NCBI GenBank assembly: GCA_963726745.1
Contig: CAVSDR010000003.1
Span: 704,001-768,000, forward strand
DNA: 64,000 bases
Reading direction: 5' to 3'
From: an uncultured Verrucomicrobiae bacterium
GTDB taxonomy: Bacteria; Verrucomicrobiota; Verrucomicrobiia; Chthoniobacterales; UBA10450
Shown here: piece by piece, positions 2,090 through 61,347 of the stretch
Layout of the letters: the number at the start of each line of letters is the position of its first letter
How positions within the stretch are numbered: position 1 is the stretch's first letter
Translations under genes and position numbers: made by a program
The notes under the pieces: generated by a model
Told to the model about the DNA's origin: nothing
What the model saw: the letters and a program-made list of their open reading frames with translations, nothing else
Database searches by the model: none

Positions 2090-2984
2090 CGGCGACCGGC
2101 TATTTCACCTTGTAAACCTCAACCAATCCGATGCCAGTCCCGCCGTCCTTGCCGCGGACGATCGCGGTGTAATTGCCGGGGACAAGCGTGGCCACGATTG
2201 CCGGCTCGAGGTCGTTCGCCGGCTGCACGGTCGTCGCGATGATCTCTGTTTCCTGCGTCTCGCGCCAGTTGTCGTTCGTGAAGACGTTGCCATTGGAGTC
2301 GTGCAATTCCAGCTCGGGGTCCTGGAGGACGCCCTGCAAAACTCCGCTCAAAGATGGACCGGTCGCGCGCACCAGAATGCCGGCCGGTTCGCTTCCGGTA
2401 ACGATGAAGCCGCCGATGAGCACGTTGTCGCCGGTGTCGACAAATCCGCGCGTGGAAATATTAGCCAGCCGGATGTCTCTGCTCCCGTCGATGTCGTAGA
2501 TCTCGGTTAACCCGATGCCGCTGCCGCCATCGGCGCCGCGCTCGATCACGGTGTAATTTCCCGGCGCCAGATCGGCGATGATGAGCGATTCGCGCGGATC
2601 GGTCGGCGCGAAGCCGTCCGGGATGCGGTCCTGGTTCGGCGCGGTTTGCCAGTTGTCGTTCGTTAGGCTGGAGCCGTCCGGCTTGAAGAGCTGGAGCACC
2701 GGATCGTTCAAGACGCCGGCTAATCCTGCGGCCGCCAGGCTCGGGCCTTTCCCGCGGATGAGGACCGCCTTGGTCGAGCCGGCCGGACCTTGGACGATGA
2801 AGCCGCCGATGAGGACCTTGTCCCCAGTCAGCACTTTCATGCGCGTGGAAATGTTCGCCGGTTGGCCGTAGCTCGGTCCGGCAATCGCGGGATTCGCGCT
2901 CACCAGCAGGCCGCCGTTGCCTAACGAGACCTGCGCGTTCGCGCTCACGGAAGCGAAGCTGCCGCTGGCCGAGCCGAATGCGAG
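2090..2984. repeat. Near-identical ~0.9-kb DNA repeat encoding the NISTR tail; other copies at ~6580-7473 and (shorter) ~13853-14618
   Basis: Direct comparison shows long identical runs with mostly synonymous differences. Confidence 0.85.
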
Positions 2985-5900
2985 CGGGTTCACCGTGTCG
3001 GCTGGGTCTGGGGTAAAGCCGTTGATCAGCTTCACGTCCAACTTGCCGCCTAACGAGACCGCGCCGGTCACGAGCAGCTGGTCGAATTGATCCGAAGTCG
3101 CGCCGCCCGCCTCGACCAGAAGGGTGCCGTTCGCGCCCTGACTAAAAGCGCCGGCGACGGTGATCGCGCCCGCGGAATGACCGGGCGAGAGATAGCCGCC
3201 GTTGTTCGTCAGGTCGCCTTGGATAATTCCCGAACCACTCAGGGTGCCGCCATCGAGCGTCACCGGGCCGAAGAGCGTCACCGCGTTCAGGTCGGTCTCG
3301 CCGCTGATTTGGTCATAGCCGTCGGCGCTCGTCGGCGCAGCTGCCGTCCCGGACCGCGCACTCGCGCCGCTCCCCGTGAGGTTGCCCGCGCCGCTAGCGA
3401 CCAGGTTTCCAGCACCCGAGGCAACCAGGCGGCTGCCATCTTTTCCGACCAAACCACCGCCGTCCTGACTGAGCAAACCGCCGCCATCCTGGCTAATAAG
3501 TCCGCCGCCATCCTGGCTGAGCAAGCCGCCGCCGTCCTGGCTAATGAGACTGCCGCCATCCTGGCTGATCAGGCTGCCGCCATCATTGCTGACCACGCCG
3601 GAGCCGGTGCCATTGATCACCCCGTTGCCGCCGAGGGTGACCAACCCGAGATGACTTTGCGCGAGCAGGCTGTTCGGATTCGCGCCGATCAAAATGCCCG
3701 CGCCGAGAACCGAATTCGCCGAGAGCACGCGGCTTTCCGCCGTCGGGTCGCGGCCGGCATCCGGCGGGATGAAGGGCGGAATCTGGAAGTTCGAGGTGCC
3801 GCGATTATTGAAAACCCGAAGCGAGGCGATGCCCTTGCTCCCGTGAAGATTGAAGGCGCCGTAATTATCGACGGACCCGGTGAAGATCGAGCGCAGCTCG
3901 TTGTTCAGCGATTCGAAGGTCGCGCCCGCCGGGATCACGAGGTGGAGGTTGAACAGGTCGCCGCCATGGACCGAGACCGTCATCATCCCGGTGACGGTGA
4001 GATCGGTCGGCGGATTAGGGAAATCCTTCACCGCGAAGATCGCGCCGCCGTTCAGGAGAAGCGAGCGGACGGTGGTGGGCTGGCCGATTTTAATGAAAAG
4101 TCCATTATTGCTTCCCACCTTGGCGAAGTCATTCGGTCCGGGGACGCCGTTGTTGCCCTGGGTATCTCTCCAGGTGGTTGGGTCGGACCAGAGCCCGCCG
4201 GAAGTGACGGCGGTGAAGGTGCGCCCGCTCGAGCTCGCAGCGTTGACCGCGGCGCCGTCCGCGCGGCTGGCCGCCTGAGGACGATCGCCGGTGTCGACTA
4301 CATTGAGGTAAACCAGGCCGGTGCCGCCGCGGCTGGTTCCGCCGAGATCGTCGATCGCGGCCGCCTCGAGCACGTGGGCGCCGGTGACGTTCAAACGGAA
4401 ATCCACGAAAGCCGGCGCGCCCGGAGCGGTCGTGATCGTCTTGCCGTCTAATAGCACCTTCAGCTCGGTGATCTTGCTCGGCGGCCGGCTGGGATCCGGG
4501 GTCGCGTCGGCGGAGAAGCGCAGCTGTCCCGCAAGGACTACGTAAGGATCGTTCTCCGTTCCGCTGCCGCTCAAATGCGCTGGCGGCGTGATCTTCGTCA
4601 CCGGCGGCGTATCCGCGGTGATGGTGTAGGCGCCGACCACATTCGAGAGGCTATCGAGGTAGCCGGACGCCTGGGCCACGGCCCGGAAATAATAGGGGCC
4701 ACCTGGCGGCACCTTATTAGTCAGCAAGATGAAGACGTCGGGAAAATTGCCCACGGCGCTGCGCGCCATCCGGCCGGCGTTGCCGTCGCCCAGGTCGGTC
4801 CAGCTCGATTCCACCGCGGGCGTCTGGCTGGCCTGGATGCGAAGGAGCGTGCCGGCCGGTGCATTCGGCGCGCCGGCGAGGAACGAAAGGTCGGCCAGGG
4901 TGCCGTTGCGCTTGAAGAGCAACAGGACCGGCGGGAGATGGCTGCCGCCGGTCGAGCCGTCGAAAGATCCGACGTAATTCGAGATGCTGTTGGGATAGCC
5001 CGCCGCGGAGGCGATCACGCGGAAGAACAGACCCGGCCGCGCAGGATAGGCAGTCGTGTTCAGGAAAAATTTCCCGGTTTTCTTGTCGAAGGCCATCCGG
5101 CCTTTGGTCGCCGTCGGCAGATCGGTCCAGCTCGTATTGGTGCCGTCGTTTGGCTCCGGAGTGGTCGAGGATTGCACCCGCAAAGCCAGCTTCGCGGGCG
5201 TGCCGCCTTGCAGCGCGACAAAGCTGAGCACGGGCCCGCTGAGCGTGCCGGCGCGATCGGCGCTACCGTTGACCTTCAAAGTCGTCGCGGAGAGTCCGCC
5301 ATGCGGTGGCGGGGTCGGCGCCGTCTCGGGCCCGATCGTGATTTTCAAGTCGGTCCAGGCGCTGTCGCCGCCGGGCCCGCGCGCGAGCACCGAGAGATCA
5401 GCCGTCACTTCGACTTGCGGCGTGCCGCTAATCAAGCCGGTCGCGGCATTGAGCGAGAGTCCTTGCGGCAAACCGCTGATGAAAAATTGCGTGGGGTTAT
5501 TCGTCGCGGTGATTTGGAAACTGAAGGGGACTCCGACCGTGCCACTCGCCGTGCCCGGGCTCGTGATCACCGGCGGTGGCAGCGGCGCCGCACGACTCCA
5601 CTTGGGCGAGTTCGCCTGGGTGGTGTTGTAGACGCGACGATTGGTGCCATCCAGGTTCATCACGCCCAGACGGTTGCTGCCGCCGACGTCTTGATAAGAA
5701 ATCTGAGTTCCATCCGGCGAAAACCAAGGCGCCGAATCGCCGCCAGTGGCTGTCACCGGGGTGACCCGCGTCTCGGCTCCCGTGACGGGGTTCAGAGTGT
5801 AAACCGTGCCCGCTTTTTGGCAGACGATCTTCGTCCCGTCTGGCGACCAGGATGGCTGGCGATAGTTGGCATTGTCGTCCGTGGAGATCCTCACGGGTGC

Positions 5901-6473
5901 GCTCGCCCCATCCGCATTGACGATGTAGATCCGATTCGGCGTCGCGTGCCCGCTCGCATCACGCGCATAAGCATCAAACACGATCTTTGTCCCGTCCGGC
6001 GACAACGCTGGATCGAAGCCCTCCAGCGCGTAGCCGAAGGTCGTGGCCGACCGAAAACCGGTGCCATCCACATTGAAGGTGGCGAGGTACCTCCCAGCCG
6101 GTGCGGAACATAACGCCGCCAGCTTCGTCCCGTCGGCGGACCAGGACGGCAGGCTGCAGCCGTCCGTGTTTGGGATAAGGGCAGCGCCGGTGCCATCCGG
6201 ATTCATCAGAGAAATCCCGTTAGTGCCACTGACTACGAACGCGATCTTGCTGCCGTCCGGCGACAGCTCAGGGTAGAAATCATCCGTCGGGCGGTTCAGC
6301 CGGGTGTTGCCCGTGCCGTCGCCGTTAATGATGGAAATCTGGTAGTGCGTCGGTGCGCCGTTATCCGGGATGTTCGTGTAGTAGACAATCTTCCCGGTGG
6401 ACGCAGCCAGGGCGCCGGTGGCGCTGGCTAAAAGCGCGGTCAAAGCGATGGCAATACTGAAGCGAAATTTCAT
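2100..6473 (-). CDS. Secreted modular protein, paralog 2 (1457 aa): TolB/PD40 propeller, Ig-like domain, duplicated conserved domain, passenger-like beta-helix with 8-aa SQDGG repeats, tandem NISTR C-terminal domain
   Basis: Signal peptide MKFRFSIAIALTALLASATGALA; repeated P(S/A)(W/L)SPDGTKI blades; 'VITSPGTASGTVGVPFSFQITATNNP..GLPQGLSLNAATGLISGTP' Ig-like motif; two NISTR units ending GLVEVYKVK. Confidence 0.9.
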   Translation of the reverse strand: MKFRFSIAIALTALLASATGALAASTGKIVYYTNIPDNGAPTHYQISIINGDGTGNTRLNRPTDDFYPELSPDGSKIAFVVSGTNGISLMNPDGTGAALIPNTDGCSLPSWSADGTKLAALCSAPAGRYLATFNVDGTGFRSATTFGYALEGFDPALSPDGTKIVFDAYARDASGHATPNRIYIVNADGASAPVRISTDDNANYRQPSWSPDGTKIVCQKAGTVYTLNPVTGAETRVTPVTATGGDSAPWFSPDGTQISYQDVGGSNRLGVMNLDGTNRRVYNTTQANSPKWSRAAPLPPPVITSPGTASGTVGVPFSFQITATNNPTQFFISGLPQGLSLNAATGLISGTPQVEVTADLSVLARGPGGDSAWTDLKITIGPETAPTPPPHGGLSATTLKVNGSADRAGTLSGPVLSFVALQGGTPAKLALRVQSSTTPEPNDGTNTSWTDLPTATKGRMAFDKKTGKFFLNTTAYPARPGLFFRVIASAAGYPNSISNYVGSFDGSTGGSHLPPVLLLFKRNGTLADLSFLAGAPNAPAGTLLRIQASQTPAVESSWTDLGDGNAGRMARSAVGNFPDVFILLTNKVPPGGPYYFRAVAQASGYLDSLSNVVGAYTITADTPPVTKITPPAHLSGSGTENDPYVVLAGQLRFSADATPDPSRPPSKITELKVLLDGKTITTAPGAPAFVDFRLNVTGAHVLEAAAIDDLGGTSRGGTGLVYLNVVDTGDRPQAASRADGAAVNAASSSGRTFTAVTSGGLWSDPTTWRDTQGNNGVPGPNDFAKVGSNNGLFIKIGQPTTVRSLLLNGGAIFAVKDFPNPPTDLTVTGMMTVSVHGGDLFNLHLVIPAGATFESLNNELRSIFTGSVDNYGAFNLHGSKGIASLRVFNNRGTSNFQIPPFIPPDAGRDPTAESRVLSANSVLGAGILIGANPNSLLAQSHLGLVTLGGNGVINGTGSGVVSNDGGSLISQDGGSLISQDGGGLLSQDGGGLISQDGGGLLSQDGGGLVGKDGSRLVASGAGNLVASGAGNLTGSGASARSGTAAAPTSADGYDQISGETDLNAVTLFGPVTLDGGTLSGSGIIQGDLTNNGGYLSPGHSAGAITVAGAFSQGANGTLLVEAGGATSDQFDQLLVTGAVSLGGKLDVKLINGFTPDPADTVNPLAFGSASGSFASVSANAQVSLGNGGLLVSANPAIAGPSYGQPANISTRMKVLTGDKVLIGGFIVQGPAGSTKAVLIRGKGPSLAAAGLAGVLNDPVLQLFKPDGSSLTNDNWQTAPNQDRIPDGFAPTDPRESLIIADLAPGNYTVIERGADGGSGIGLTEIYDIDGSRDIRLANISTRGFVDTGDNVLIGGFIVTGSEPAGILVRATGPSLSGVLQGVLQDPELELHDSNGNVFTNDNWRETQETEIIATTVQPANDLEPAIVATLVPGNYTAIVRGKDGGTGIGLVEVYKVK
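3375..3600 (-). repeat. 24-nt/8-aa tandem repeat (L/V)(I/L/V)SQDGG(G/S) grading into LVASGAGN
   Basis: Translation VVSNDGGS LISQDGGS LISQDGGG LLSQDGGG LISQDGGG LLSQDGGG LVGKDGSR LVASGAGN LVASGAGN. Confidence 0.9.
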
Positions 6474-6588: not shown

Positions 6589-9500
6589 CTATTTCACCTT
6601 GTAAACCTCAACCAAGCCGATGCCAGTCCCGCCGTCCTTGCCGCGCACGATCGCCGTGTAATTTCCGGGAACGAGCGTGGCCACAATTGCCGGCTCGAGG
6701 TCGTTCGCCGGCTGCACGGTCGTCGCGATGATCTCGCTCTCTTGTGTCTCGCGCCAGTTATCGTTCGTGAAGACGTTGCCATTGGAGTCATGCAGTTCCA
6801 GCTCGGGGTCCTGGAGGACGCCCTGCAAAACTCCGCTCAAAGAAGGACCGGTCGCGCGCACCAGAATGCCGGCCGGTTCGCTTCCGGTAACGATGAAGCC
6901 GCCGATGAGCACGTTGTCGCCGGTGTCGACAAAGCCGCGCGTGGAAATATTAGCCAGCCGGATGTCTTTGCTCCCGTCGATGTCGTAGATCTCGGTCAAC
7001 CCGATGCCGCTCCCGCCATCGGCGCCGCGCTCGATCACGGTGTAATTTCCCGGCGCCAAATCGGCGATGAGGAGCGATTCGCGCGGATCGGTCGGCGCGA
7101 AGCCGTCCGGGATGCGGTCCTGGTTCGGCGCGGTTTGCCAGTTGTCGTTCGTTAGGCTGGAGCCGTCGGGCTTAAAGAGCTGGAGCACCGGGTCGTTCAA
7201 GACGCCGGCTAATCCCGCGGCCGCCAGGCTCGGGCCTTTCCCGCGGATGAGGACCGCCTTGGTCGAGCCGGCCGGACCTTGGACGATGAAGCCGCCGATC
7301 AAGACCTTGTCGCCAGTCAGCACTTTCATGCGCGTGGAGATGTTCGCCGGCTGCCCGTAGCTCGGTCCGGCAATCGCGGGATTCGCGCTCACCAGCAGGC
7401 CGCCGTTGCCTAACGAGACCTGCGCGTTCGCGCTCACGGAAGCGAAGCTCCCGCTGGCCGAGCCGAATGCGAGTGGGCTGAAAGTATCCGCGACGTCGGG
7501 CGCGTAGCCATTGATCAACTTGAGCTTCAAGTTGCCGCCTAAATTCGCCGCGCCGCCGACGAGCAATTGATCAAACTGATGCGCGAGCGCGCCGCCTTCC
7601 TCGAGCACGAGCGTGCCATTGGCGTTTTGGGAAAAGTCTCCGGTCACAGCGATCAGGCCGGCAGTTTGCCCCGGCGAGATGTAGCCGGCGTGGTTGGTCA
7701 GATCACCCGCGATCACGCCCGTGCCCGAAAGGACGCCGCCGTCGAGCGTGACCGCGCCGAGGATCGTGACTGCGCTTAAATTGGTCTCGCCGCTGGTTTG
7801 GCTAAAGCCGCTCGCCGCAGCTTGCACGCTCCGGTTTGCGGCGCTCGCGTGGAAATTTCCCGCGCCCGCCGCGATCAAGTTCCCGGCTCCAGCGGCCACT
7901 AGATTCCCTGCGCCCGCGGCGATCAAGCCGCCGCCGTCGTGGCTCACGATGCCCGCGCCATCCTGCGAAATCAGGCCCGCGCCATCCTGGCTGATCAAGC
8001 CGCCGCCATCGTGGCTGACGATATTCCCCGCGCCCGCGGCCACGAGATTGCCGCGCATCGCTGCGACCAGCCCACCGCCGTCATGACTGACGATCCCGGC
8101 GCCGTCCTGACTGATGAGCGGCGCGAGATTGAACCCGAGAATGTTCCCGGTGTTGGCGATCGATCCGGCGTCGAGGATTTTCAGCCCGGCCAAAGGATCG
8201 AGCCCGGCAGCCGGCGGAATCGTGAGCGGCGTCTGGAAGTTCGTCAGTCCGTGGTTCGTGAAGACATCGGTGCGCAAGCCGCCGCTGCCATGGAGAAAGA
8301 GGCGCCCGTTGTTCACGATCTCGGTGCCCCCGCCAAAGATCAGGTCGACGGAATTGAGGAGCTCGCAGGTGGCGCCGGCCTGGATCACGAGGCTGATGTT
8401 CGTCGTGCGCCCGGAGGTCACGGTGAGTTGTTTATCGATCAGCAGTTTGCCCGGCCCGATGATATTGCCGCCTTGGAGAATCACGGAAGCGACCTCGGCG
8501 TTGGCCGAAGGCATCAGACGCACGCGCATCGCTCCGATGACCACGAGATCGTTCGGGCCGGGGACGCCATTTACGCCGCGCGCATTTCTCCAGGTCGCTG
8601 GGTCGTTCCAAAGGCCGTTATCGGTCACAAGCGTGTAGGTGCTGCCGGTCGCGCTCGTCGCGCTCGCGGCGCTGTTGCGCGATGCCGCTGCCGAACGATC
8701 TCCAGACGGCACGACCTGGAGGTAGAACGCGCCGGTCCCCGCGCGGCTGGTCGCACCGAGGTCGTCGACCGCGGTCGCTTCAAGCACATGGAGGCCGAGC
8801 ACATTCGTGGTGTAATCCAAGCCCGCGCTGCCACTCTCGGAAGTCTTCAAAGTGGTGCCGTCGATCTGCAGCTTCAGGCTCGCGATGCGGCTGCCATTGC
8901 GCGCCGCGTCCGCGATCGCATCAGCCGAGAAATGGAAACTGCCCGCCGCGATCAGCAACGGGTCCTCCGGCGTGCCGCGGCCGCTCAAGCCGACCGGCGG
9001 ATGAAGCGTGACTACCGGCGGCGCATCGGCCCGCAGCGTGTAGGGCCCGAGCACATTCGAGAGGCTATCGAGTGATCCGGAAAGCTTCGCGACCGCGCGG
9101 AAATAAACCCCGGCACGCGCTGGCAAATTGTTCGTCAGCAGGAGGAAGAAGTTCGGGTAAGTCGCGTTCGTGCTCGGGTTCATTGCGCCCACCTCCGACC
9201 AGCTCGCTTCCACTTCCGGCGTGGTCGAAGACTGCACGCTCAAGGCGACGCCGGCGGGTGGATTCGCCTCGACCGCGGTAAAGGAGAGGTCCGCCAGCCA
9301 GCCGTTCCGCTTTAGCCAAAGTCCGACCGGCCCGAGGTGATTTCCCATCGTCGAAAGATCGAATGGCCCAACCACGTTTGAGTTGGACGGGGCGTAGCCG
9401 GCGGCCGTCGCCACCGCGCGGAAGTAAAGGCCCGCCTGCGCGGGATAGCCGGTGCTGTTCAGGATAGAAAGTCGTCTTTGCCGCGTCCGGAGTCATGTGC

Positions 9501-10770: not shown

Positions 10771-11367
10771 ATGAGCGAGGGGATGGCGCGGCAAACAGAG
10801 GAAAACCAAGCCGCCCTGGTCGCTTTTCTCGAGGGTGAGGTCCCCGCCGGGGCGAACGCGCAGCTGAACGCCCTGCTGCCCGAGGTCTACGCCGATCTCC
10901 GCGAGATGGCCGCCTCCTACCTGCGCAATGAGCGGCCCAACCACACCCTCCAGCCGACCGCACTGGTGCACGAATCCTACCTTCGTCTCGTTAGCCAGCA
11001 CACCGTCGACTGGAACGACCGCTTGCAATTCCTCTCCATCGCCGCGCGCATGATGCGGCGCATCCTGTCGAATCACGCGATCGCGCGGCAGCGGGTCAAA
11101 CGCGACAGCGGCGAACCCTTGCTCGAGCTGGATGCGGCGCTGGAATTCCACGACCGCACCCAGCTGAGCCTGGTGAAACTCGAGGAAGCGCTCCGCGGCT
11201 TGGAAGCACTCGATGCTCGTCAGGCGCGCGTGGTCGAGCTGCGTTTCTTCGGCGGGCTCACGCTTGAGGAAACCGCCGAAGTCCTCGGCATTTCCGCGAT
11301 GACCGTGCGGCGCGATTGGGTGACCGCGCGGCAATGGCTCCAGCGCGAGATCAGCGACCAGGCATGA
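10771..11367 (+). CDS. ECF RNA polymerase sigma factor, TIGR02999/ECF43-type (kinase-associated)
   Basis: Motifs 'LLPEVYADLREMA', 'HTLQPTALVHESYLRL', 'VVELRFFGGLTLEETAEVLGISAMTVRRDW..AR.WL'; stop overlaps kinase start (ATGA). Confidence 0.93.
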   Translation: MSEGMARQTEENQAALVAFLEGEVPAGANAQLNALLPEVYADLREMAASYLRNERPNHTLQPTALVHESYLRLVSQHTVDWNDRLQFLSIAARMMRRILSNHAIARQRVKRDSGEPLLELDAALEFHDRTQLSLVKLEEALRGLEALDARQARVVELRFFGGLTLEETAEVLGISAMTVRRDWVTARQWLQREISDQA

Positions 11368-13848
11368 CCCCGGCCCGTTGGCAGCAGGTCAAAGAAACCC
11401 TCGCCGCCACCTTGGATTGCGAGACTGCGGAGGCGCGCGCGCGTTACCTCGACGGAGCCTGCGTCGACGACACCGCGCTCCGGCGTGAGGTCGAATCACT
11501 CGTTAGCCAGCAAGCCGAGGCGTTCGATTCCTGGGCTGATGGCGGCGGCTTCGTCGGCGCTGATCCGTCGCTGCGGCAAAACGAAGGGCGGCGCATCGGC
11601 GCCTACCGCCTGCTTCGCGAGCTCGGCCGCGGCGGGATGGGCGCGGTCTGGCTGGCCACGCGCGCGGACGCGGAATTTCGCAAGACGGTTGCGATCAAAC
11701 TGCTCAAGCGCGGGACCGATACCGATGAAGTCCTGCGCCGTTTCCGCGCGGAGCGCGAAATCCTCGCGCGCCTGGAGCACCCGTACATCGCGCGATTGCT
11801 CGACGGCGGCACGACCGACGATGGCTTGCCCTACCTCGTGATGGAATACGTCGACGGCATCCCGCTGACTGATTTCGGCGAGGCGCACAACCTCTCGTTA
11901 GGCCAGCGGCTCGAGCTCTTCCTCAAGATCTGCGGCGCGGTCCAGTTCGCCCATCAAAACCTGATCGTGCACCGCGACCTGAAGCCGGCCAACATCCTCG
12001 TGACCGCCGAGGGCGAGCCGAAGCTGCTCGACTTCGGGATCGCCAAGCTCCTCGACCCGGCGGAAGCCTGGGAGCAAACCCTCCCCGGGCGCGATCGTTA
12101 CACGCCGGCCTACGCCTCGCCCGAGCAAGTGAGCGGACAGCCGGTCACAACGGTGAGCGAGGTCTACTCGTTAGGCACGCTCCTCTACGAGCTGGCCACG
12201 GGGACCCGCGCGCACCGTTTCGCCACCGCCCACCCGATCACCGCCGAAGTGCAGCGGGTGGTGCGCGAGAGCGAGCCGATGCGGCCGAGCCTGGCGGCGC
12301 CGCCGGAGCGACGCGCAGCTTTGCGGGGCGATCTCGACACGATCATCCTGCGCGCGCTGGCGAAGGAGCCGGCGCGCCGTTACCCGAGCGCGGGAAATTT
12401 AGCCGACGATTTGCGGCGGCATTTGCAAGGCCGGGTCGTGCAAGCGCGGCCGGATACATTCCGCTATCGCGCCGGCAAATTTTTTGCCCGGAATAAGGTC
12501 GCGACCAGCGCCGCGGCTTTGCTTCTCCTCAGCTTGCTCGTCGGCTTCGTTGCCACCGCGCTTGCAGGCACGCATTGCCAACCGCGAACGCGTGCACGCG
12601 GAACGGCGCTTCGGGCAACTGCGCGCCGTCGCCAGCAGCTTTCTCTTCGAATTGGACGACGCGATCGCGCAACATCCGACGCAGGCGCGCAAGATTCTGG
12701 TCGAGAAAGCGCGCGACTATCTCGACAGCCTCCACCGCGACGCGGCGGGCGATCAACCGCTCGAAGCGGATCTGGCCGCGGCTTACCAAAAGCTCGGCGA
12801 TGTCGAATCGCAGCTGAACCAGGCGAACCTTGGCGACAGCGCCGGTGCGCTCGCGAGCTACCGGAAGTCGCTCGCCTTGCGCGAGACGCTGCTGACTCGC
12901 GCCCCGGCGGCTGAGCGGAGCCTGCGCCAACGGGAACTCGCGATGAGCTTCCGCCGCTTGGGCGACATTCTTGGCAAAACCGGCCACACCGCCGAAGCGC
13001 TCGCCAGCTACGAGAAAACTTTGCCGCTATTGCAGACCGCGGCTGCGCAGGGCGATGCGGAAGCGCGCCTGGCCCTGGCCTCGAACGAGGAAATCGTCGG
13101 CCGGATGTCGCTCATGACCGGCGAGACCGCGAGCGCCGAGGGGCATTACCAGCATGCCCTCGCGCTCACCGAGGGCCTTTTGCACACCAGCCCAGGGGAT
13201 CGCGCGGCGCAACTCGAGCGCGCCAAAGCACTCGTTAGTCTGGGCTATCTGCGCGGCCTGGCCGGAGCGCGAACTGAGGCCATCGCGCTTTACCGGGAAG
13301 GCCTCGCGCTGGTGCAAGCCTTGGCCGAGGCCGATCCGGCGGATCGCACCTTGCAACGACGCTTGATGGACAGCCGCGCCTGGCTTGGAATTGGGCTGAG
13401 CGAAGCGCAGGATTACGCGGCGGCGCGGGAACAATTTGCGCTCGCGCAAAAGCTTTGCGCCCTCGCGCTGGAGAGCGATCCGGCCAATGTGCAGACGCAC
13501 AACGACCTGGCCGATGTGCTGCATAACACGGCGGAAAGCTGGCTGCGCCAGGGCCAGGGAGCAGAGGCGCTCGGATATGCGCGCGAGGCCCACGCGCAAT
13601 ATGCGTTGGTCGCCGCAGCTGATCCGCTCAACGTGCATGCCGCCCGGCAGGTTGCGGTGGCCGAGGAAGATCTCGCGCGAGCACTCGCGCTGACCGGTTC
13701 GGCCGCTGAAAGCCTCGTGCAAATGCGGGCGGCGTTGGGCGATTTCGAGGCGCTTGCAGCGAAGGATTCCTCGAACGTTCAATTCCGCAAAGATGTGGAG
13801 CGTTGCCACGCCGAGCTAAGCAAAATCGCGCCGGAACCGCGTAGCTAG
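11364..13848 (+). CDS. Membrane Ser/Thr protein kinase with C-terminal TPR-like sensor region; apparent frameshift at ~12564
   Basis: GRGGMGAVW, VAIK, HRDLKPAN, DFG, TPAYASPE; TM helix AAALLLLSLLVGFVATAL; continues in ORF 12484-13848 (QARIANRERVHAERRF...helical repeats). Confidence 0.9.
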
Positions 13849-19699: not shown

Positions 19700-22109
<2,410 letters not shown>

Positions 22110-24015: not shown

Positions 24016-24085
24016 CCGAAGGTCGAACGCCGAACGCTGAACGTCCAACGTCGAATTAAGACTCCCCGGTTCGACGCTCGGCCTT
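24016..24085. repeat. Heptamer tandem array (YYRAACG-like, about 6 units) with an inverted partner across the nucleotidyltransferase stop; hairpin-capable
   Basis: ccgaagg tcgaacg ccgaacg ctgaacg tccaacg tcgaatt; 24019-24035 pairs with 24069-24085. Confidence 0.65.
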
Positions 24086-25423: not shown

Positions 25424-25523
25424 CCCGGCGCCATCTTCGCGGCGGGCGCGCGGGCTGTCGAGTGAAGCGCCCATCGCCGGCACGATTGAAGAATCCAGCT
25501 CGCTGGCTAGCCTTCGCCACTCC

Positions 25524-40407: not shown

Positions 40408-40624
40408 CGCGGAGCGGCGACGCTACCACCGAAAGCGCAGAGCGAAAAGGGAGAGCCCGGGCGGACATCGGAAAGGGTCGCGGCGCTTCCCTTACCCACT
40501 TGTAACGCTCGGGTAACCCTCAGGTCAGAGTGCTGGCTAAAAATCCCAGAACTCCTCGAAGGCTCCGTCTCCTCACGGATCTCCCCGGAATTCATTTCAA
40601 CCCTACCGCCTCTCCCTCTCTCGC

Positions 40625-51486: not shown

Positions 51487-54400
51487 TTACAGCGAATCGC
51501 CCGAGCGATTCCGCACCGCGATGGCGTCGCCGCCATTGATGTTGCCGTCTGTATTCACGTCGTAACGCAAGGTCGACGAGTCCACCGTCTGCCCGGAGCG
51601 GTTGCGCACCTGGATGGCGTCGCCGGAGTTAACGATCCCATCGGCATTGGTGTCGCCTACGAGGAAGGCCACCGGCACGGTGATCGTCTTGGCCCCGGAG
51701 CCGTCGTTCGCGCCGGTGAGCTGGACGTTCACCACCTGGCCGTTGGTTACGTTCTTTAAGTTCACGACGACTTCGTTGCCGTTGGTCGACGTGCTGTCTA
51801 TTTCCGCGCTCTTGCCTCCGGCCGGGGTCACGCTCGCGTTGGTGAAGGTCGCGGGCGCGCCGAACTGGAAGACGATCTGGTGGCTGCCGTTGTTCGGGCC
51901 GTTGCCAATTCGGCACTCGACCGCGCGGGTTCCAGTCAGCGGCAGGGGCATATCCTGCGTGCCGCCATGGAGCTTGCGCGAAACCACCCGGGCGACACCG
52001 GGCACGACGTTAACCGTGACCGGATTGCTGAACGGCCCGGGCGCGGCCTGCCCGCCGAGATCGAAGGTGGTGCGGACACGATAGCAATAGGTGCCGCTGC
52101 TCTTTTGCTGGACCGAGCTGGTCCCGGCGGTGGCAGCCACATCGACCCAGTTGTCGTTCACGATCGCGATGTCATCGACATACCAGCCGAAGGGCGCCGA
52201 GCCCGCGCGATCCTCCGCGCCGAGCGCGTAGTGGAAGCGCAGCCGGATGGTTTTGCCGCCGTAATCTGCCAGGCTCACGGAATGCGGGAAGAGCGTCTCG
52301 GTGGCGAAGGAAACCGCGCCGGTGCCGAGCTCCGAGCGATTGTGCAGATACACCGGGACCCAGCTCACGCCGTTATCCTCGGAGACCTCCACCAGGACAT
52401 TGTCGTCGCCTTCGTTGTTGTCCCAATCGAGGAAATTCAGGAACGTCTGCCCGCCCGTCGGGATGGTGATCGGAAACTTGTAGGTCAGGTAGGAATCCGC
52501 ACTCGTGATCCCGTTGACCCCTTGCACGTTGAAGGTGTTGCTCGGGTGCTGCGGCTTGGAGTTATCCGTCTTCCATGGCTGCGCCCCGGTGCCGGAGGTG
52601 GTGGTGGTCCAATTCGCCAAACCGGCCTCGGCGTTGTCGAACAAGAGCGGCGCGCAGGAGGTGCGCGATTCCTGGAGGACATCCGGCCCGATCGCCTGCG
52701 CGGGACGGACCCAGTTCAAGGTGAACTTGCCGTCTGTGTCCGGGTTCTCGTAGTCGGGTCCGGTGGTCAAGGTCGGGGCCTGCAAGACCGGGCAGGTGAA
52801 GACGCGGATGTTGTCGACATACCAACCCTTCACCCCGTTGCAGCCATCCTGGCTCCAGGTGAAGCGAAGGCGGATGGTATCGCCCGGTTGCGCCATGGAA
52901 GCGAGGTCAACCAGGGTGGTCCCCCAGGAGCCAAGGATCACCGACCCGAGATTCGTCCCGGTCCAGGCAATCTCGGAAGGGTTCGGATTGGTGTTGTTCC
53001 CCACGGGGGCGGCCTCGTTGTAAACCGTGTTCGGCGCGTTGAAGAGATACGCGCTCTTTGGGACGAGCTGGTACGCTCCCCCGTTTCGGCTGATTTCCAA
53101 TTGCCCGCCGTCCACGCCGGCCTCGCTCGCGATCCAATGGTCAAACGACAACTTGGCCGCAGTCGCGCCTGCCGGGATCGTGATCAATGGGCTGTCGAGC
53201 GTGTGGCTTCCGGAGAAGTCGCCGTTTGGCTGGCAAGTGCCGCCGCCTTCCTCGCCCACGGGAGGATCAATCGCAAAGGCCGCCGAGCCGGTGCGCCCGC
53301 CGGGTAAACTGCCGACAACATGGAAGAAACGCGTATCGTTTTTCGAGGGCTGCTGCTCCCAGTCGACCAGCCCGTGGCGAAGCCCATGCTCGTCTTGGTC
53401 CAGCCGCGCGCGGCCGCGCCGGCATCGCCGCCGGTCTCCCAATTTTCCGAGAAAATGGTGTTCGACCCGAGGCAAATCGGAGCTGGATCGGGATTAAGCA
53501 AGGGCCCGGTGGCGCAGGGCGGCGTGAGGCTCATCTCGACCGCGAGCATCGCTTTCGCGAGTTGCTGGCAATCGCCGGCGGTGATCACCTGCGCCGAGGG
53601 CGTGCCGGTGGCGCTGGTGGTCGACAGGTTCTTTAACGGCGCCCCGATCAGATCGCTGCAGGAAGTTTGCAACGCGGTGTCGTGGACTTTGAAGTCCGTC
53701 GTGGGCGTTTGGTAAACGCTCTCGGCCCGGAAATAGATCGCGGCTGCTTTCGTTAGGCCAATGCCGGTGATGGTCTGGCCGTTCCATTCATTCCCCGGGA
53801 AGAATTGCGTGCCATCAACCGTGAGGGCATAGCCGTGATTCGGCACGCCGGAGTTCGTGTGCACGCCGCCACCGTCGCCGGTGCCGCAGGCGTAATTGAG
53901 CGAAGAAACTTTGCCGGGCGCGCCCTGGCGGTCGGGATCGTACATATCGCGCAGGAGGAGAGACTGAAGTTCCTCGCCCAGGTCTTCGCCCACGAGCCAG
54001 CGTTGGCCGTTCGGATAGGGCTGGGCATTGTTGTTTCCGCCGATGCCGTCGGCGTTGTTCAGGAGGTCCACGGTCTCGCCAAAGATGTCGGAGTAACTCT
54101 CGTTCAAGGCGCCGCTCTGGAAGGCGTAGATCAAGCCGTGGGTGTATTCCGTGTAGGCGTGACTCCACTCGTGCGAGACCACGTCATCGGCGTCGAAGGC
54201 CGGGCAATAGTTCGTGGAGGTGCCGTTCCAGTAAGCGTTCGGGCACTGCTGATTGATCAGGTAGACGCTGATCATGTGTTTGCCCGCGCCATCGTAGGAA
54301 TCGCGGCCAAAACCGGAGGCGTAGAGGTTGTACGTCTGCCCGGCGAAATCGTAGAGATTGTTCACGAAGGGCGCCGGATGCGGTGGATCGCCCTCGCGCC

Positions 54401-55507: not shown

Positions 55508-58500
55508 ATGAACACCCTCCGCAAACTCCCCCTCTGGAACGTCCTCCCTCTCGTGCTCGCGCTTCTCCTGGCCGGCGTGGCCGCGCTCTTTTTAGCCAGC
55601 GCTTTCGCCGGTCCGCAGGGTAACGCGACCGTGCGTGCCCGCACCGAGGAACCGCCCGGCCGCAGCGCGGAGCGGATTGTGAGTGGCATCACTTTTTCCG
55701 CCGCGCAGCAGATGCCGAAGGCGCCGCTGAGCCCGGCGTTTTTCCAGGCCGACGCCGAACCGGAAATCAAAGCCGACATTTTCGGCAACATCTACGTCAC
55801 GGCGATCAACGGCGTCCCGGGCGGGACCGATCTCTGGAAAAGCACCGACCAAGGCACGAGCTTCACCTACCTCGGGCAGCCGGATGGCTTGCAGGACAAA
55901 TGCACTCCGCCCGTGCCGCAATGCGTCGCGCTCGGCGGCGCGGATGATTCGATCGATGTCTCCAGCGGCGGCTACCTCTACGTCTCGAGCCTCTACGTTG
56001 GCAGCGTCACCATGAGCACTTCGATGGACGGCGCGACCGGCGGCGTGCAGCCGGGTCAAGCCTGGACGGTTAATCCCGTCTCGACCGGCGTGCCGGTGGA
56101 GGATCGCCAGTGGATCGCAGCCTACGGCCCGCAAACCCTCTTCATGACCGTACGCCAGGCGCCGGGGACAGGGCGGCTGCTCTTTACCAAGTCTACTGAT
56201 GCTGGCAAAACCTTCTCGCCGCCCGCGCTGCTCACGAGCGCGAATAGCACCGAGGGCAACCTGGTGGTGGATCCTTACACCGGCTTTCTCTACACGACCT
56301 TCATTCCGTCGACCGCGCTCAACCGCATCGACCTCTTGAAGTCGGTCGATGGCGGCACCACCTGGCAGACGATCACCGGCGTCTACACGGGCGCGATCGG
56401 GAGCGATCCGGCGCACAAGTTCACCATGCTCGCGGTCGATCGCGGCGGGAATCTGCACCTCGCTTTCAGCAGCCGCAGCCCCAGCACCGGGACGCATGTT
56501 TATCTCACCAGCTCGCCGTTCCATGCCACTCTTGGCGCCGGGGAAAGCGGCACCTGGAAGGCACCGGTGCAGGTCGATAGCGGGAGCGGAAACACCGTCA
56601 CGGCAGTGATGCCTTGGATCGTGGGCGGAAGCCCCGGCGTGGTTGATGTCACTTGGCTCGGCTCCGGCGGCGTCAACCCCGACACGGCCCCGTTTAACTG
56701 GCAGGTCTTCTTCGCCCAGGTCACTGGCGCGCTCAGCGCCACGCCGACGATCACGCAGTCACAAGTCACGAACGCCGCGGTGCACGACACCAATATTTGC
56801 TTCAACGGCACCGGCTGCACCGGATCGGCTAATCGCGACCTGCTCGAGTACTACAGCATGGCGCTCGATCCGGCGGGGAACGCGCTCATCGCTTTCCCCG
56901 ACAGCGTGAATAATTGCGACCCCGCCTCCTGCAAAACCAACACCTGGTTTAGCCGGCAAACTGGCGGCCCCGCGGCCTATGCCCCGCCTGCCGGCCCGGC
57001 GCCCGCCACCTTCTCCGCGAACATCGCCGTCGGCTCCCCGGGCGCGGAGCCAAGCCTGTGGGTCGACAGCTACAACTGCATCTACGTGACCGCGCCCGGG
57101 AACCCGTGGGTGTGGAAGTCGGTCAACAACGGCATGTCCTTCCTCCCGCCGACCAATCCCGTGGCCGACGAGCCAACGCTCACCGGCGGCGACGAGGACA
57201 TCATCACCCTGCCGAAAATGGACGGCACCCGGCCGGACGAAGTTTACTTTACCGACCTTGGCCTAACCTCCGATCACATCCGCAAGTCGACCGACGGCGG
57301 CGCGACCTGGACCAAACCCGGGACCGGCGGCGTCGCGGGCGACACCGGTATTTCCTCGGATCGCCAATGGCTCGCGATCGACCGCATCGGCACGGATAAA
57401 TACGTCTACGAAGTCGATCACGAACTCGCTTCCGAGATCATCCGCCTCTCCTCCTCGGCCAACGACAACGCCTGGGTGACGCAGAACGCGATGACCGATC
57501 CCGAGCTCACGACCACCGTGCCGAACACCAATCCCGGCCCGCTCTTCGTGAACCGGAACACGCACGAAATCATCGGCGTCTTCAACGCTTCCATTCCCAC
57601 GACGAACGCAGCCAATCCGCCCTTCGGAAAGTTGCTCAACATCTGGGCCTTCGTCGCGCAACCGCCGGCGGTCGCGGGCGGCGCGCCGGTGAGCTTCGCG
57701 AATTATCCGATCTTCAAGGGCGTGATCGATTCGCCTACCGGAGTGCCGGCGGCGGCGGCGACGCGCGGAACGAACAACGCGCAGATTTTCCCCGCGGGCG
57801 ACATCGATGCGGCGGGCAATATCTACGTCGCCTGGAGCATGAACAACGCGCGCACAAACGAGTTCAGCATCTGGTTCGCCAGCTCCCATGATGGCGGGAA
57901 AACCTTCTACGGACCGTTCCCGGTGAGCTCCGGCGCACTCGCGGCCGACGAGACCGCGGTGCTCCCGTGGGTGGCTGCGGGCGACAACGGCCGGGTCAAC
58001 ATCGTCTACTACAAAACCACGGCGGTCGGCGACCCGAACACCCTCCCGCGCCTGCCCGATCCGAACGCGCCTTCCTGGCAGGTGATGTTCAGCCAAACCA
58101 TGAACGGCCAAAGCCGCGAGCCGGTTTTCACCACCGTGCAGGCGAGCGACCACGTGATCCATCGCGGCGCGATCAGCACCGGCGGTTTGATCGGCAGCTC
58201 CGACCGCTCACTGCTCGATTACTTCGAGGTCAACAACGGCCCCGATGGCCTGGCGAACATCATCTTCGCCGACAACGGCGCCAGCGCCACGCACGCGGAA
58301 TTTACCCGGCAAGCCAGCGGCCCACTCGTCCGCGCGAATCCCGTCACGCGCACCTGCCTGCCCACTTCCATCGTCCCGGTGGCGGTGGTTTCCCGCCAGA
58401 CCCACGGCACGCAAGGCGTCTTCGACATTCCGATGCCGCTCGCCGGTCCCACGGGGGTGGAATGCCGGCGGCCCGATGCGGCTGGCGCCTATCATTTGGT

Positions 58501-58973: not shown

Positions 58974-61244
58974 ATGTCTGATCTCGCTGTCTCTTCCCCG
59001 CGCCGCCGTTTCCGCTGGACCTTCGCCGCCCTTCTCGCCGCCGCCGCGCTCGTCTGTCTGGTGGCGGTCTACCGTTCCGGCGCGGCCAATCCCACCAGCG
59101 GCAGCATTTCGCCCACGTCGAATGTGCTCGCCTGGGATGGCACCGCCGCCGGCGGGACTTCGAATGGCGAAGCCACCTGCGTCGAGGGGGTAAATTGCGA
59201 CACCTACACGCTCACCGTGTCCGGCGACGCCGCCGCTTGGGCGGGCAAAAGCATCCGCGTGGTCATCTCCTGGGTGGTGCTGGCGAGCGATTACGACCTC
59301 TACGTGCACAAGGGGAGCAACGCCGGGCCGCTCGTTGGCTCGTCGACTGGCGGCGCGCCCAACACCACCGAGACGGTCGACATTTCCCCCGCGAGCCTGG
59401 ACCCGAGCGGCACGACCGTTTTCACTGTCCATGTGGTCTATTTCGCCGGCAGCGTAGGCGATCAATACCACGGCACGGCTACGGTCGTTTCCACCGGCCC
59501 GGGCGGCACGCCCACACCGACGCCGCCGCCGAAATCGCCCGATTGGACGATCAAATACCACGGCCAATGCTGCGAAGGGAACCTCGCCGCCGCGGGCAAT
59601 AACACCTTTGTTCTTCTGCCCGTGCTCGTGACCGGCAACATCATCGAGAAGAGCGCCGATGGCGGGAAAACCTGGACGCAAAAATATCCGCCCGCGCCCG
59701 CTTCCGTGCCCTTCGGCATCGAAGGCGACATGCAAGCCTTTGGGACTGATGTGATCTTCTTCGGCACCGAGTTGGGCGACGTGGTCACCGCGCACAGCGA
59801 TGACTTTGGCGAGAACTTCATCATCACTCACGTGCCGCTCGCTTCCGCCGGCAACGACCAGGCCTGGTCTTACCTCGCGCCCTTCTCCGGGATGCGTCCC
59901 GGCGGCGCTCTCCCGACTGATGAGCCGTATGTTTTAGCCGGCTGGATGCGCATCGGCACCGCGCTCATCTTTAGTTTCGACGGCGGGCTCACTTTTCCCA
60001 TCCAGACGCCACTCGTCGGCAATGACGGCAGCGGCCCGGAGCACATCGTTTGTCAGACCAACGCGCACACGCCTAACCCCGCCGCGCCGCCGGACACGCG
60101 CGTGCCGAATGCGAATTTCGCCCTGCACAAGGCCGGTCGTCACGGCACCTTCGGGACCGACCGGAAATTCTACTGGAGCGAAAGCACGCCCGACAGCCTC
60201 TACGTCTGCAGCACCGGAGACTTCGGCGTAAATTGGGCCGGCGTGAAGCATCCGCTGGGGACTTATCCCGGCTCATCCTTTGTCGTCTCGCACTCGGCCT
60301 TCGATAATAAAGGCACGCTCTATGTGCTTCATGGCAATCGTCTCTACGTGAGCTTTAACCAAGGCGAGACCTGGGCCTACACGCACACCCTTCCGCGTTA
60401 CGGGAACGCCCTGCGCTCCGATTCCGGGTCCGATCAATTCTTCGTCGTCAGCTGCGGCACGGCGCACGTGGCCCTTCTGGAAGATGCCGGCAATGGCAAC
60501 GCCCGCGTCTATTACCTGCGGGGGCGGAACGTCGATACCGCCGCGCCCACCTGGGACGTCGAACTGGTCGACGAAGTCGGCAACGTGCGCCTCGATTTCA
60601 TTCAGCTCGTGCTCGACGGCAACGGCATTCCCACGATCAGTTACACCACGCCGACCACCCAGGTGACCACGGCCAGTCGCAACTCGCCCCTGCCCGGCAC
60701 GACCGTGTGCCCGGTCATCCCGGTCAGCGCGGTCTCGCGCAAGACCCACGGCAGCGCGGGGACGTTTGACGTCAATTTGTTGACCGCGTCCACCACACCC
60801 GCGACCGAACCGCGCCGCGGCGGACCGAACGGCGACTACCAAATTGTCGTCAATTTTGCCGGCCCGATCACCATGGGCCAGGCTTCGGTCGATTCCGGCA
60901 CGGGCACGGTCAGCGGCACGAGCGTGAATGGCTCGACCGTGACGGTGAATCTCACCGGCGTGACCACACCACAGATCGTGCGCGTGAAGCTCGCGAACGT
61001 AAACGACGGCGCCACCGCCTCCGATGTCCTCATCACCCTCGGCGTCGCCACTGGCGACGTGAACAACGACGGCGTGGTCAACGTGGGCGACGCGCAGGAA
61101 GCGCGTAATCGCTCCGGCCAGACGACCGACGGCACGAATTTCCGCGACGACGTGAACCTCGACGGCGTGATCAACGGCGGCGACACGATCGTGGTCCGCG
61201 CGCGTTCCGGCGACACCATCCTGGGAACGCCGAGCGCACGCTAG
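58974..61244 (+). CDS. Secreted Asp-box/BNR protein with shared N-terminal beta-sandwich and VSRKTHG-Ig plus dockerin-like tail
   Basis: AAGGAG RBS; signal peptide; SADGGKTW, SDDFGENF, SFDGGLTF, SFNQGETW; GDVNNDGVVNVGD...DVNLDGVINGGD. Confidence 0.88.
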   Translation: MSDLAVSSPRRRFRWTFAALLAAAALVCLVAVYRSGAANPTSGSISPTSNVLAWDGTAAGGTSNGEATCVEGVNCDTYTLTVSGDAAAWAGKSIRVVISWVVLASDYDLYVHKGSNAGPLVGSSTGGAPNTTETVDISPASLDPSGTTVFTVHVVYFAGSVGDQYHGTATVVSTGPGGTPTPTPPPKSPDWTIKYHGQCCEGNLAAAGNNTFVLLPVLVTGNIIEKSADGGKTWTQKYPPAPASVPFGIEGDMQAFGTDVIFFGTELGDVVTAHSDDFGENFIITHVPLASAGNDQAWSYLAPFSGMRPGGALPTDEPYVLAGWMRIGTALIFSFDGGLTFPIQTPLVGNDGSGPEHIVCQTNAHTPNPAAPPDTRVPNANFALHKAGRHGTFGTDRKFYWSESTPDSLYVCSTGDFGVNWAGVKHPLGTYPGSSFVVSHSAFDNKGTLYVLHGNRLYVSFNQGETWAYTHTLPRYGNALRSDSGSDQFFVVSCGTAHVALLEDAGNGNARVYYLRGRNVDTAAPTWDVELVDEVGNVRLDFIQLVLDGNGIPTISYTTPTTQVTTASRNSPLPGTTVCPVIPVSAVSRKTHGSAGTFDVNLLTASTTPATEPRRGGPNGDYQIVVNFAGPITMGQASVDSGTGTVSGTSVNGSTVTVNLTGVTTPQIVRVKLANVNDGATASDVLITLGVATGDVNNDGVVNVGDAQEARNRSGQTTDGTNFRDDVNLDGVINGGDTIVVRARSGDTILGTPSAR

Positions 61245-61347
61245 AGGGCAGCGTTTGGCCTAACGAGTCTTCATTCCCGCGCGAGTGGCCGGCGGTTTTT
61301 TCGCGTGGCTCACAGCTTTTGGCGGCGCTTGCCTCGATTCTCTTGGC

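Follow-up and report, generated by a model that had tools for sequence, protein, structure and literature searches.

The question raised by a 64,000-nucleotide stretch of DNA from an uncultured Verrucomicrobiae bacterium (hereafter the window; positions 704,001 to 768,000 of contig CAVSDR010000003.1, designated G000:C3:704001-768000, where G000 is the genome of the window) is why one short word should recur in it on both strands and in unrelated genes. The original prediction, made from the letters of the window, described a 10-mer, CTCGTTAGGC, as a non-palindromic, lineage-specific genome signature imposed at the level of DNA and behaving like the DNA uptake sequences (DUS) and uptake signal sequences (USS) of other bacteria, and this description holds. 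The element in question, designated W1 and defined here by the 9-mer TCGTTAGGC, is neither a gene, nor a mobile element, nor a protein motif. It is a real, strong, and apparently unpublished signature of the DUS/USS kind, found in a new phylum and accompanied by several independent words per genome, two of which, W2 (AAGATCGACA) and W6 (GYYGGCTAA), are treated alongside it.

Within the window, the 10-mer occurs 15 times against an expectation of 0.10, a count reached by none of 100 dinucleotide-preserving shuffles, and every position and strand originally given for these copies matches the recount. W1 itself occurs 23 times (0.23 expected), the 8-mer CGTTAGGC 24 times (1.41 expected), and sites with at most one mismatch 32 times (3.69 expected). 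The nine additional positions named for the 8-mer core are all among its 24 occurrences, and the seven one-mismatch sites reported (1076, 10987, 11499, 13231, 22140, 24865, and 35187) are likewise real. Approximately 12 copies are independent, as had been estimated, because three copy pairs are paralogous (2919 with 7408, 11894 with 20230, and 12167 with 20507). Two details required revision: the true core is the 9-mer with weak flanks rather than the 10-mer, and the assumed GC content of ~67% was slightly too high, the contigs of the genome measuring 0.62-0.64.

Abundance and placement of W1

The genome (3,406,779 bases in 7 contigs, 94.7% complete) contains 1312 copies of W1 and 820 of the 10-mer, for which an order-3 Markov model predicts 19.7 and 6.1, respectively; the latter is the commonest 10-mer of the genome, and W1 ranks second among 9-mers, behind CGCGCGCGC. 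In the profile of W1, the seven positions TCGTTAG are nearly invariant, and some tolerance is seen at the two that follow, G and C. The upstream flank is weak, with C at -1 in 62% of copies (A in only 2%), A at -2 in 43%, and A or T at -5 in 70%, which gives the pattern W-N-N-A-C ahead of the core; identical flank preferences were found in 317 W1 copies from relatives. Around the copies in G000, neither conservation beyond ~14 bases nor AT-rich flanking segments were detected, and none of W1, W2, and W6 is palindromic.

Gene calls derived from open reading frames (ORFs) and codon scores (3008 genes covering ~87% of the genome; figures based on them are approximate) place 966 W1 copies within genes, 183 in intergenic DNA, and 163 over a gene end, with 74% of copies inside ORFs. 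Four frames are used within genes, reading Ser-Leu-Gly (447 copies), (x)-Val-Arg (78), Leu-Thr on the opposite strand (223), and Pro-Asn-(Asp/Glu) (218). The other two frames hold TAG or TAA, and 161 of the 163 gene-end copies give the called gene its stop (88 TAA, 73 TAG); the frames and stop-codon use first read from the window (SLG, VR, LT, PNE) therefore hold across the whole genome. Genes contain 972 copies, whereas the codon-aware null that had been proposed as a means of refutation, run as 20 gene-by-gene shuffles of synonymous codons, yields 21.8 +/- 3.8 and never more than 26. Likewise, TCG-TTA-GGC spells 448 of the 771 Ser-Leu-Gly tripeptides, where codon usage predicts 4.2. The codons concerned are rare, as claimed, TTA and CTA making up 2.8% and 1.3% of Leu codons and AGG 1.2% of Arg codons, and W1 holds 15% of all TTA, 16% of all CTA, and 9% of all AGG. 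The constraint thus acts on DNA, not protein. W1 has also altered proteins, as evidenced by an excess of the Ser-Leu-Gly tripeptide to 1.63 times the expectation from amino-acid composition (0.87-1.08 for seven control tripeptides). As a side observation, stops in the ORF-based calls comprise 1061 TGA, 1042 TAG, and 904 TAA, the latter two being unusually many for 64% GC, an excess not wholly explained by W1 because W1 supplies only 161.

Along the chromosome, W1 is found 631 times on the plus and 681 times on the minus strand, and its orientation is unrelated to GC skew (r = 0.05 over 69 bins of 50 kb), with 154 plus and 166 minus copies in bins of positive skew and 474 plus and 511 minus copies in bins of negative skew. 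With a weak GC skew and a genome in 7 contigs, this result is good but imperfect evidence against a signal of the type of Chi or of the FtsK-orienting polar sequences (KOPS). The copies also avoid one another: the genome has 11 gaps of up to 100 bp, 33 of up to 200 bp, and 177 of up to 500 bp, compared with 49.3, 96.5 (+/- 9.0), and 227.4 in random placements, and none of 200 placements was as low as the observed values at any of the three cut-offs. This self-avoidance is independent of orientation (92 direct and 85 inverted pairs within 500 bp) and recurs in a genome of another genus (G062, genus g38).

Nearly all 50-kb bins contain 8 to 30 W1 copies. The longest W1-free stretches, C7:60030-95400 (35 kb, GC 0.593) and C6:413728-437792 (24 kb, GC 0.60), both encode glycosyltransferases, Wzy, Wzz, ABC-2 exporters, sugar aminotransferases, and an exosortase, and are surface-polysaccharide clusters, a kind of locus commonly exchanged between lineages. 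W1 is missing from such foreign-looking gene islands, and its density rises with the GC content of third codon positions, from 0.239 per kb in the lowest quintile of genes to 0.402 in the highest. In the five largest W1-free regions, W6 is present in 27 copies, with 39.5 expected.

Relatives, turnover, and companion words

A search with ileS retrieved, as relatives of G000, metagenome-assembled genomes that bear the labels Chthoniobacterales, Verrucomicrobiota, 'Spartobacteria', or Candidatus Udaeobacter, so that the taxonomy guessed in the original prediction was correct. In the same genus, 24 of 24 genomes carry the 10-mer at 51-1549 copies (11-57 for a reversed-word control), compared with 0-14 copies in each of 16 genomes that represent 15 other families of the order. 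A survey of the 9-mer in 251 genomes of the family (30 genera, each genome at least 80% complete) gave 1042-4633 W1 copies per genome in genus g37 (34 genomes), 1808-2628 in g18 (5 genomes), 1297-1836 in g30 (5 genomes), 354-1803 in g38 (4 genomes), 160-2435 in g1, the genus of the window (23 genomes), and 56-587 in g28, g22, and g45 (34, 65, and 18 genomes), with numbers at about the level of the reversed-word control in g21 (22-198 in 20 genomes), g35 (13 in one genome), and g44 (60 in one genome). W1 is accordingly enriched in most genera of one Chthoniobacterales family and in no other searched family of the order, and the original notion of a word private to its lineage gives way to a family-wide one. 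Even in G002, a word-poor genome of the same genus, W1 is still the most enriched 9-mer (9 copies, 25-fold) in the 153 kb searched, in which no replacement word was found. W1 looks like an ancient trait of the family that is graded in its strength, and it seems dispensable because its density swings 15-fold within a genus and whole genera lie at background, with no replacement in G002. Six genomes in the family tallies (G001, G008, G045, G155, G208, and G243) are flagged as unpublished, and the conclusions are independent of them except for the count of W6 in G045. A weak test on viral contigs, seeded with two exact W1-containing 14-mers, retrieved 207 viral loci, 189 of which contain the seeded copy only and none of which contains more than 3.

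Since a metagenome scan with the glgA-like protein of the window found nothing closer than 77% amino-acid identity, gain and loss were followed not in the genome's own lineage but in close pairs among the relatives (loci at 88-99.9% nucleotide identity; the pairs are not independent). In the 88-90% identity class, the word survives intact in 102 of 183 cases (0.56) for W1 and in 200 of 266 for W2, compared with 0.378 for random 9-column windows. Partners without the word mostly differ from it by one base (115 of 124 for W1, 97 of 137 for W2), which indicates that words are gained and lost by single point changes rather than by block replacement. W1 decays more slowly than neighbouring DNA and has undergone repeated, independent single-base gains. 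In ileS, W1 occupies 15 different orthologous positions across 80 related loci (1 to 29 loci each) and W2 occupies 16. The exact 10-mer copy at 39394..39402 (-) is intact in 29 of 77 loci, where 6.1 would be expected from flank identity under neutrality, and is an old, conserved site. The exact 10-mer copy at 38936..38944 (-) is intact in 5 of 80 loci and the W1 copy at 40338..40346 (+), at the 5' end of the gene, in 4 of 72, and both sites are young; the former cost an amino-acid change, because the other relatives read TCGTCGCGC and similar sequences there.

W2, mostly with an A directly after it, dominates in many relatives and is unrelated to W1, rather than a dialect one or two bases removed. 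Across 121 family genomes, W2 is at background (9-70 copies) in g1, g37, g18, g30, g28, and g39 and high in g38 (3589-4653 in three genomes), g20 (2607), g34 (1588), g23 (1450), g29 (1104), and g45 (204-1474). All three g38 genomes searched for both words contain W1 and W2 together; G062 has 1803 and 4653 copies in total, and a 400-kb portion of it has 218 (45-fold) and 601. In this portion, W1 gaps of at most 100 bp number 3 (11.7 +/- 3.1 expected), and self-avoidance of W2 is weak (62 compared with 84.9 +/- 8.2). The 40 kb at G062:C14:360001-400000 (L427-L428), with a reversed GC skew (+0.038), contain no W2 and only 4 W1 copies, as against ~1.5 W2 per kb elsewhere, and are a probable foreign island.

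W6 occurs 1139 times in G000 (68.5 expected) and 27 times in the window (1.23 expected), in several frames and on both strands. Its flanks are A/T-rich: position -5 is A in 81% of copies, and a run rich in T follows the word. W6 shares G-S-C-T-A-A with GCCTAACGA, the reverse complement of W1, and to judge from this overlap looks like a shifted dialect of W1; composite W1/W6 sites, GYYGGCTAACGAG, number 92 genome-wide. In 22 other genomes of the genus, W6 is present at 27-136 copies, save for G015 (354) and G017 (213), and the unpublished g21 genome G045 has 555; the word is nearly private to G000.

Other repeated sequences were also encountered. AACGTCCAAC, whose hits lie 7, 14, or 21 bases from one another, was dropped as a further word because it consists for the most part of a 7-base tandem repeat, and AATGACGAA, ACAGCTAC, and GAACTGTACG are present in a few loci. 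Tandem 7-base repeats of AACGTCC occur in many family genomes (e.g., G102:C34:2837-2874 and G139:C62:23520-23550), with up to 156 hits of the corresponding 10-mer per genome, and are of a short-period kind that can shift reading frames. In G000, the hexamers GCCAAC (~140 copies of each 12-14-mer) and CCGACT (~50) form long tandem arrays and are among the commonest long k-mers.

Sites in the window

The W1 copies of the window are distributed over numerous genes. ORF 2100-6473(-) contains a copy at 2660..2668 (+), antisense and read CTA-ACG, and an exact 10-mer copy at 2919..2927 (-), read Ser-Leu-Gly and paralogous to the exact 10-mer copy at 7408..7416 (-); the latter is in the same frame, as is the 10-mer copy at 3048..3056 (-). 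The copy at 7149..7157 (+) is antisense in ORF 6589-9414(-). Two exact 10-mer copies, at 11895..11903 (+) and 12168..12176 (+), lie in the kinase ORF 11316-12914(+) and are paralogous to those at 20231..20239 (+) and 20508..20516 (+), respectively, the last of which is read Ser-Leu-Gly in ORF 20451-22109(+). Between these pairs, a copy at 14414..14422 (+) is antisense in ORF 14230-18867(-), in the CCT-AAC-GA frame, and an exact 10-mer at 17314..17322 (-) is read Ser-Leu-Gly, as is another at 21477..21485 (+). Farther along, copies at 23470..23478 (+) and 24633..24641 (+) are antisense in the glgA-like ORF 22559-24010(-) and the nucleotidyltransferase ORF 24056-25483(-), and 25937..25944 (-) is the 8-mer core only, in the one-off variant CCCGTTAGGC. 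The copy at 33605..33613 (+) overlaps the ends of two convergent ORFs, its TAG being the stop of ORF 32925-33611(+). Three exact 10-mer copies belong to the M12 peptidase ORF 34716-37700(-), two antisense (34838..34846 and 37186..37194, both +) and one read Ser-Leu-Gly (35412..35420, -); these are followed by the three ileS copies described above, by a copy at 53750..53758 (+) in the region of the M4 peptidase ORF 53184-55277(-), and by an exact 10-mer at 61258..61266 (-) in the gap between ORFs 58974-61244 and 61285-65004. Among assembled contigs from three runs of one soil study, for which the best share of words was 0.20 and depth was low, the only listed base difference inside a word is C>G at 20239, in one contig of a related strain. 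Confirmation of the bases is provided by the other genomes and not by these contigs.

Composite sites in which a W1 variant is fused to W6 are found at 10987..10999 (+; CTCGTTAGCCAGC, reverse complement GCTGGCTAACGAG), 11499..11511 (+), and 35184..35196 (-), and account for the one-mismatch variants reported at 10987, 11499, and 35187. The inverted GGCTAA pair noted at 16816..16834 is real (GTCGGCTAA A TTAGCCGAC), but it is an inverted pair of W6, a separate abundant word, and not the related half of W1 that it was taken for. The remaining W6 copies on the plus strand are located at 2715..2723, 6423..6431, 7204..7212, 14097..14105, 14469..14477, 24998..25006, 33008..33016, 33341..33349, 34860..34868, 36042..36050, 37905..37913, 40532..40540, and 50030..50038, and those on the minus strand at 2461..2469, 6950..6958, 12399..12407, 14215..14223, 20742..20750, 48615..48623, 55592..55600, 56949..56957, and 59934..59942. 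The copy at 2715 lies 55 bp from W1 at 2660, an arrangement that recurs at 7204 and 14469 in paralogous domains.

Between 40600 and 61000, the window has only 2 W1 copies (53750 and 61258), versus 21 in the first 40.4 kb, and 5 W6 copies; the proteins encoded there are of BNR-repeat, dockerin-bearing, M4 peptidase, and large unassigned types, and the block may have been acquired more recently. The gene ileS, at 37704-40407(-), is split into two overlapping ORFs (37704-39254 and 38938-40407) by a frame change at ~39187-39254, away from any word copy, and the ileS ORF of a related long-read locus (L055) is likewise short (663 codons); an indel error of long-read assembly is the likely cause and a pseudogene the less likely one. 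Paralogous Ser/Thr kinase and TPR genes at 11316-13848 and 19700-22109 are each seen as overlapping ORFs, and a second frameshift between 20239 and 20508 is suggested by the fact that W1 at 20231 and at 20508 are in different frames, whereas their counterparts at 11895 and 12168 share one. Lastly, a short-period internal repeat is present at 27716-27834, within a gene for an Ig-like (Big_3_5) surface protein (27544-31254, -).

Possible origins and known counterparts

Three functions had been proposed for the word, namely uptake, recombination, and nucleoid-protein binding, of which uptake is the best fit. On the present analysis, W1 would be a DUS/USS-like self-DNA word spread by biased uptake and recombination, a reading in which we place roughly even confidence. 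Cells equipped with a type IV pilus, ComEA, and ComEC would preferentially import word-bearing fragments via a putative sequence-specific receptor, DprA and RecA would recombine these fragments into the chromosome, and point mutations that complete a perfect word would thereby be over-transmitted (molecular drive). The word could in this way be written at each tolerant position, on any strand and in any frame, up to about one copy per 2-3 kb, with W2 in sister genera and W6 in G000 possibly representing further specificities of the same process; the uptake bias, the receptor, and the link to recombination are the parts that we infer. According to the available text of two studies (PMC2397512, PMC1939737), uptake sequences are enriched in the core genome, absent from recent acquisitions, highly conserved, located in permissive gene parts, evenly spaced with a link to recombination tracts, devoid of orientation bias, and composed of a core with weak flanks, properties that the W1 pattern, as analysed here, matches. 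The import genes of G000 include ComEC (an 849-codon open frame), DprA, 3 secretins, 10 PilB/PilT-type ATPases, 18 prepilin-like genes, and, as a weak match (29 bits), a ComEA-like HHH_3 ORF, and are permissive only. A 452-codon prepilin-like gene located ~3 kb from dprA (G000:C6:620352-624179) is a receptor candidate.

Several observations weigh against a simple form of spread of W1 by uptake. ComEC is present in 117 of 121 family genomes, including 10 of 10 in the word-poor g21, and is thus non-discriminating. A single genome can carry two or three unrelated words at high density (W1 with W2 in G062, W1 with W6 in G000), for which several receptors would be needed, in contrast to the one-word DUS and USS systems. 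If all words fed one saturable uptake step, moreover, they would be expected to avoid one another, and no such cross-avoidance was seen: in the 400 kb of G062, 121 W1 sites lie within 200 bp of W2 (101.5 +/- 6.9 expected), and in G000, W6 is randomly spaced, avoiding neither itself nor W1. Only 11 W1 pairs lie within 100 bp of each other across G000, and, with just 5 of these inverted, paired copies in terminators of the Neisseria type are absent. Finally, near-misses of published DUS and USS are over-represented in a graded fashion, unlike those of the W1 core, where one-off variants at positions 0 and 2-6 do not exceed the Markov expectation (a change of G to A at position 2, for instance, is never seen where 9 would be expected); variants in excess are the tolerated ones, namely TTGTTAGGC (121 compared with 8, and enriched in G062 too) and three changes at position 7 (80-240 compared with 8-17). 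Because near-misses at core positions show no excess, W1 in G000 looks actively maintained and not a decaying relic, which also argues against the idea that it has been decaying after a switch to W6.

The coexistence of words leads to a broader possibility, which we entertain tentatively and well short of even confidence: the family, among the most abundant bacterial families of soil, may run a combinatorial set of unrelated self words (W1, W2, W6, and probably more), serving either as a multi-receptor transformation barcode or as the product of an undescribed kind of word writing driven neither by uptake nor by methylation. Each word would then have its own reader, and words would be gained, shifted, and lost at the genus-to-species level, acting independently within one genome. 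A multi-receptor barcode, if true, would partition natural transformation among co-occurring soil populations and be the first uptake-sequence system outside the Proteobacteria.

Intracellular word writing without uptake, by a sequence-specific modifying or nicking enzyme together with biased mismatch repair or gene conversion, is an unlikely but serious alternative. The occurrence of unrelated words in varied combinations, with W6 nearly private to a species, resembles the fast turnover of restriction-modification specificities; core near-misses are at or below expectation, as if converted; W6 and W2 have little or no self-avoidance; and the sequence of W2 includes GATC and TCGA. A process of this kind has been proposed for highly iterated palindrome 1 (HIP1) of cyanobacteria, which is a precedent as a hyper-abundant word linked to orphan methyltransferases in the available text of PMC4390886 and PMC5861425. 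Yet neither the C5 nor the N6/N4 methyltransferase of G000, followed through 121 family genomes, tracks W1, W2, or W6, and a Vsr-type endonuclease was not found in G000, at its 94.7% completeness. The sole C5 methyltransferase of G000 (540 codons) lies in a W1-free 15-kb contig end (G000:C5:204152-219285), probably a mobile restriction-modification island given that close orthologues of the enzyme (59-81% identity) are dispersed among five genera; only 31 of 121 genomes yielded this enzyme or a homologue, and most of the W1-rich ones did not (it was found in 5 of 17 in g37 and 1 of 5 in g18). The single N6/N4 methyltransferase (G000:C3:981068-982039), which looks like a housekeeping orphan enzyme, is kept at 59-78% identity in 119 of 121 family genomes, word-poor genera included, and conserved in this manner irrespective of the words, it cannot set lineage-specific ones. 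Type I methyltransferase fragments look broken. With 9-14 informative, non-palindromic positions, the words are also longer than the sites that methyltransferases usually recognise, and site-by-site repair bias does not predict the self-avoidance of W1 below 500 bp.

It is improbable that the copies are selected sites for a chromosomal protein, whether an architectural or nucleoid protein, a reader of Chi-type recombination hotspots, or a defence system that uses them as a self mark. Such a site could account for the sharp core with weak flanks, the shared flank preferences of relatives, the conservation of copies above background, and their more even spacing than chance. Chi and KOPS, however, are strongly skewed and co-oriented with replication, and W1, without strand or replichore skew, contradicts the recombination or segregation signal of this type that had been proposed. 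The 15-fold range of W1 density within one genus (160 to 2435), which makes a nucleoid-protein site unlikely, the background levels in g21, g35, and g44, the lack of a replacement word in the 153 kb of G002, and the turnover of positions, as in ileS, further argue against a protein site. The notion that the signature is not real, but an artefact of base calling or assembly, the trace of a mobile element, or a product of gene duplication, is negligible, for although ileS carries a likely indel error and 3 of 15 window copies are paralogous, the base-calling artefact named in the original prediction is excluded because enrichment is seen in hundreds of independently assembled genomes, short-read and long-read, and in metagenome contigs from many projects, the ileS frameshift is away from any word copy, and copies in unrelated genes and four frames share nothing past ~14 bases, which, with 74% of copies in ORFs, also led to rejection of a dispersed repeat of the repetitive extragenic palindromic or miniature inverted-repeat transposable element type.

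To our knowledge, words of the uptake-sequence type have been experimentally established in only two proteobacterial families, and a literature search whose coverage excluded subscription journals found no paper describing such sequences, or iterated words, for Verrucomicrobia, Udaeobacter, or Chthoniobacterales. The same signature is seen here in Chthoniobacterales, among them relatives that carry the label Candidatus Udaeobacter and that are highly abundant in soil but uncultured. If the words mark DNA for uptake, these organisms would practise sequence-selective natural transformation, with a bearing on gene flow, on the boundaries between species, and on what becomes of extracellular DNA in soil. 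Coexisting words and the species-level birth of W6 constitute a natural experiment on the origin of specificity that Neisseria and Haemophilus do not offer. In addition, the words can be used for binning and classifying metagenome contigs of the family and for flagging foreign islands, and they suggest a design rule for DNA meant to transform these organisms once they are cultivable.

Among known systems, Chi, KOPS, and the architecture-imparting sequences (AIMS) are, like W1, short, over-represented, non-palindromic words of the native chromosome, but they are co-oriented with replication and W1 is not; the enrichment of Chi is few-fold, and W1 is 10-60 times more enriched. HIP1 of cyanobacteria (GCGATCGC) is likewise hyper-abundant on coding DNA, conserved across a large clade, and found in variants, and its function, long unknown, is now being linked to gene transfer, as far as the available portions of the sources go (PMC4390886, PMC5861425). 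In contrast to W1, W2, and W6, which are non-palindromic and tracked by no methyltransferase, HIP1 is a palindrome recognised by conserved orphan methyltransferases.

Closer parallels are provided by the uptake sequences. The USS of Pasteurellaceae combines a 9-mer core (AAGTGCGGT) with AT-rich flanks; W1 also has a 9-mer core and even spacing but not the AT-rich flanks, a feature shared by W6. In the available text of PMC1939737, 65% of USS in H. influenzae lie in ORFs, compared with 74% for W1, and the effect of W1 on the peptide content of the proteome, seen in the Ser-Leu-Gly excess, has a counterpart in the USS (compare the available part of PMC2817400). Unlike the USS, W1 has no over-represented core near-misses and shares its genome with other words. 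The DUS of Neisseriaceae, a 10-12-mer with a GCCGTCTGAA core, has the minor pilin ComP as its receptor and exists in dialects; W1 differs from it in having almost no terminator-type inverted pairs, in coexisting with unrelated words, and in belonging to the phylum Verrucomicrobiota. The likeness is nonetheless extensive: W1 is similarly non-palindromic, is 9-10 bases long, and has one or two 5' positions that are weaker, and, to the extent covered by the available text on DUS (PMC2397512, PMC1939737), the copies of both number in the hundreds to thousands and lie unskewed on the two strands, within genes, and in several frames, and both are conserved above background, missing from recently acquired DNA, and represented by lineage-specific variants.

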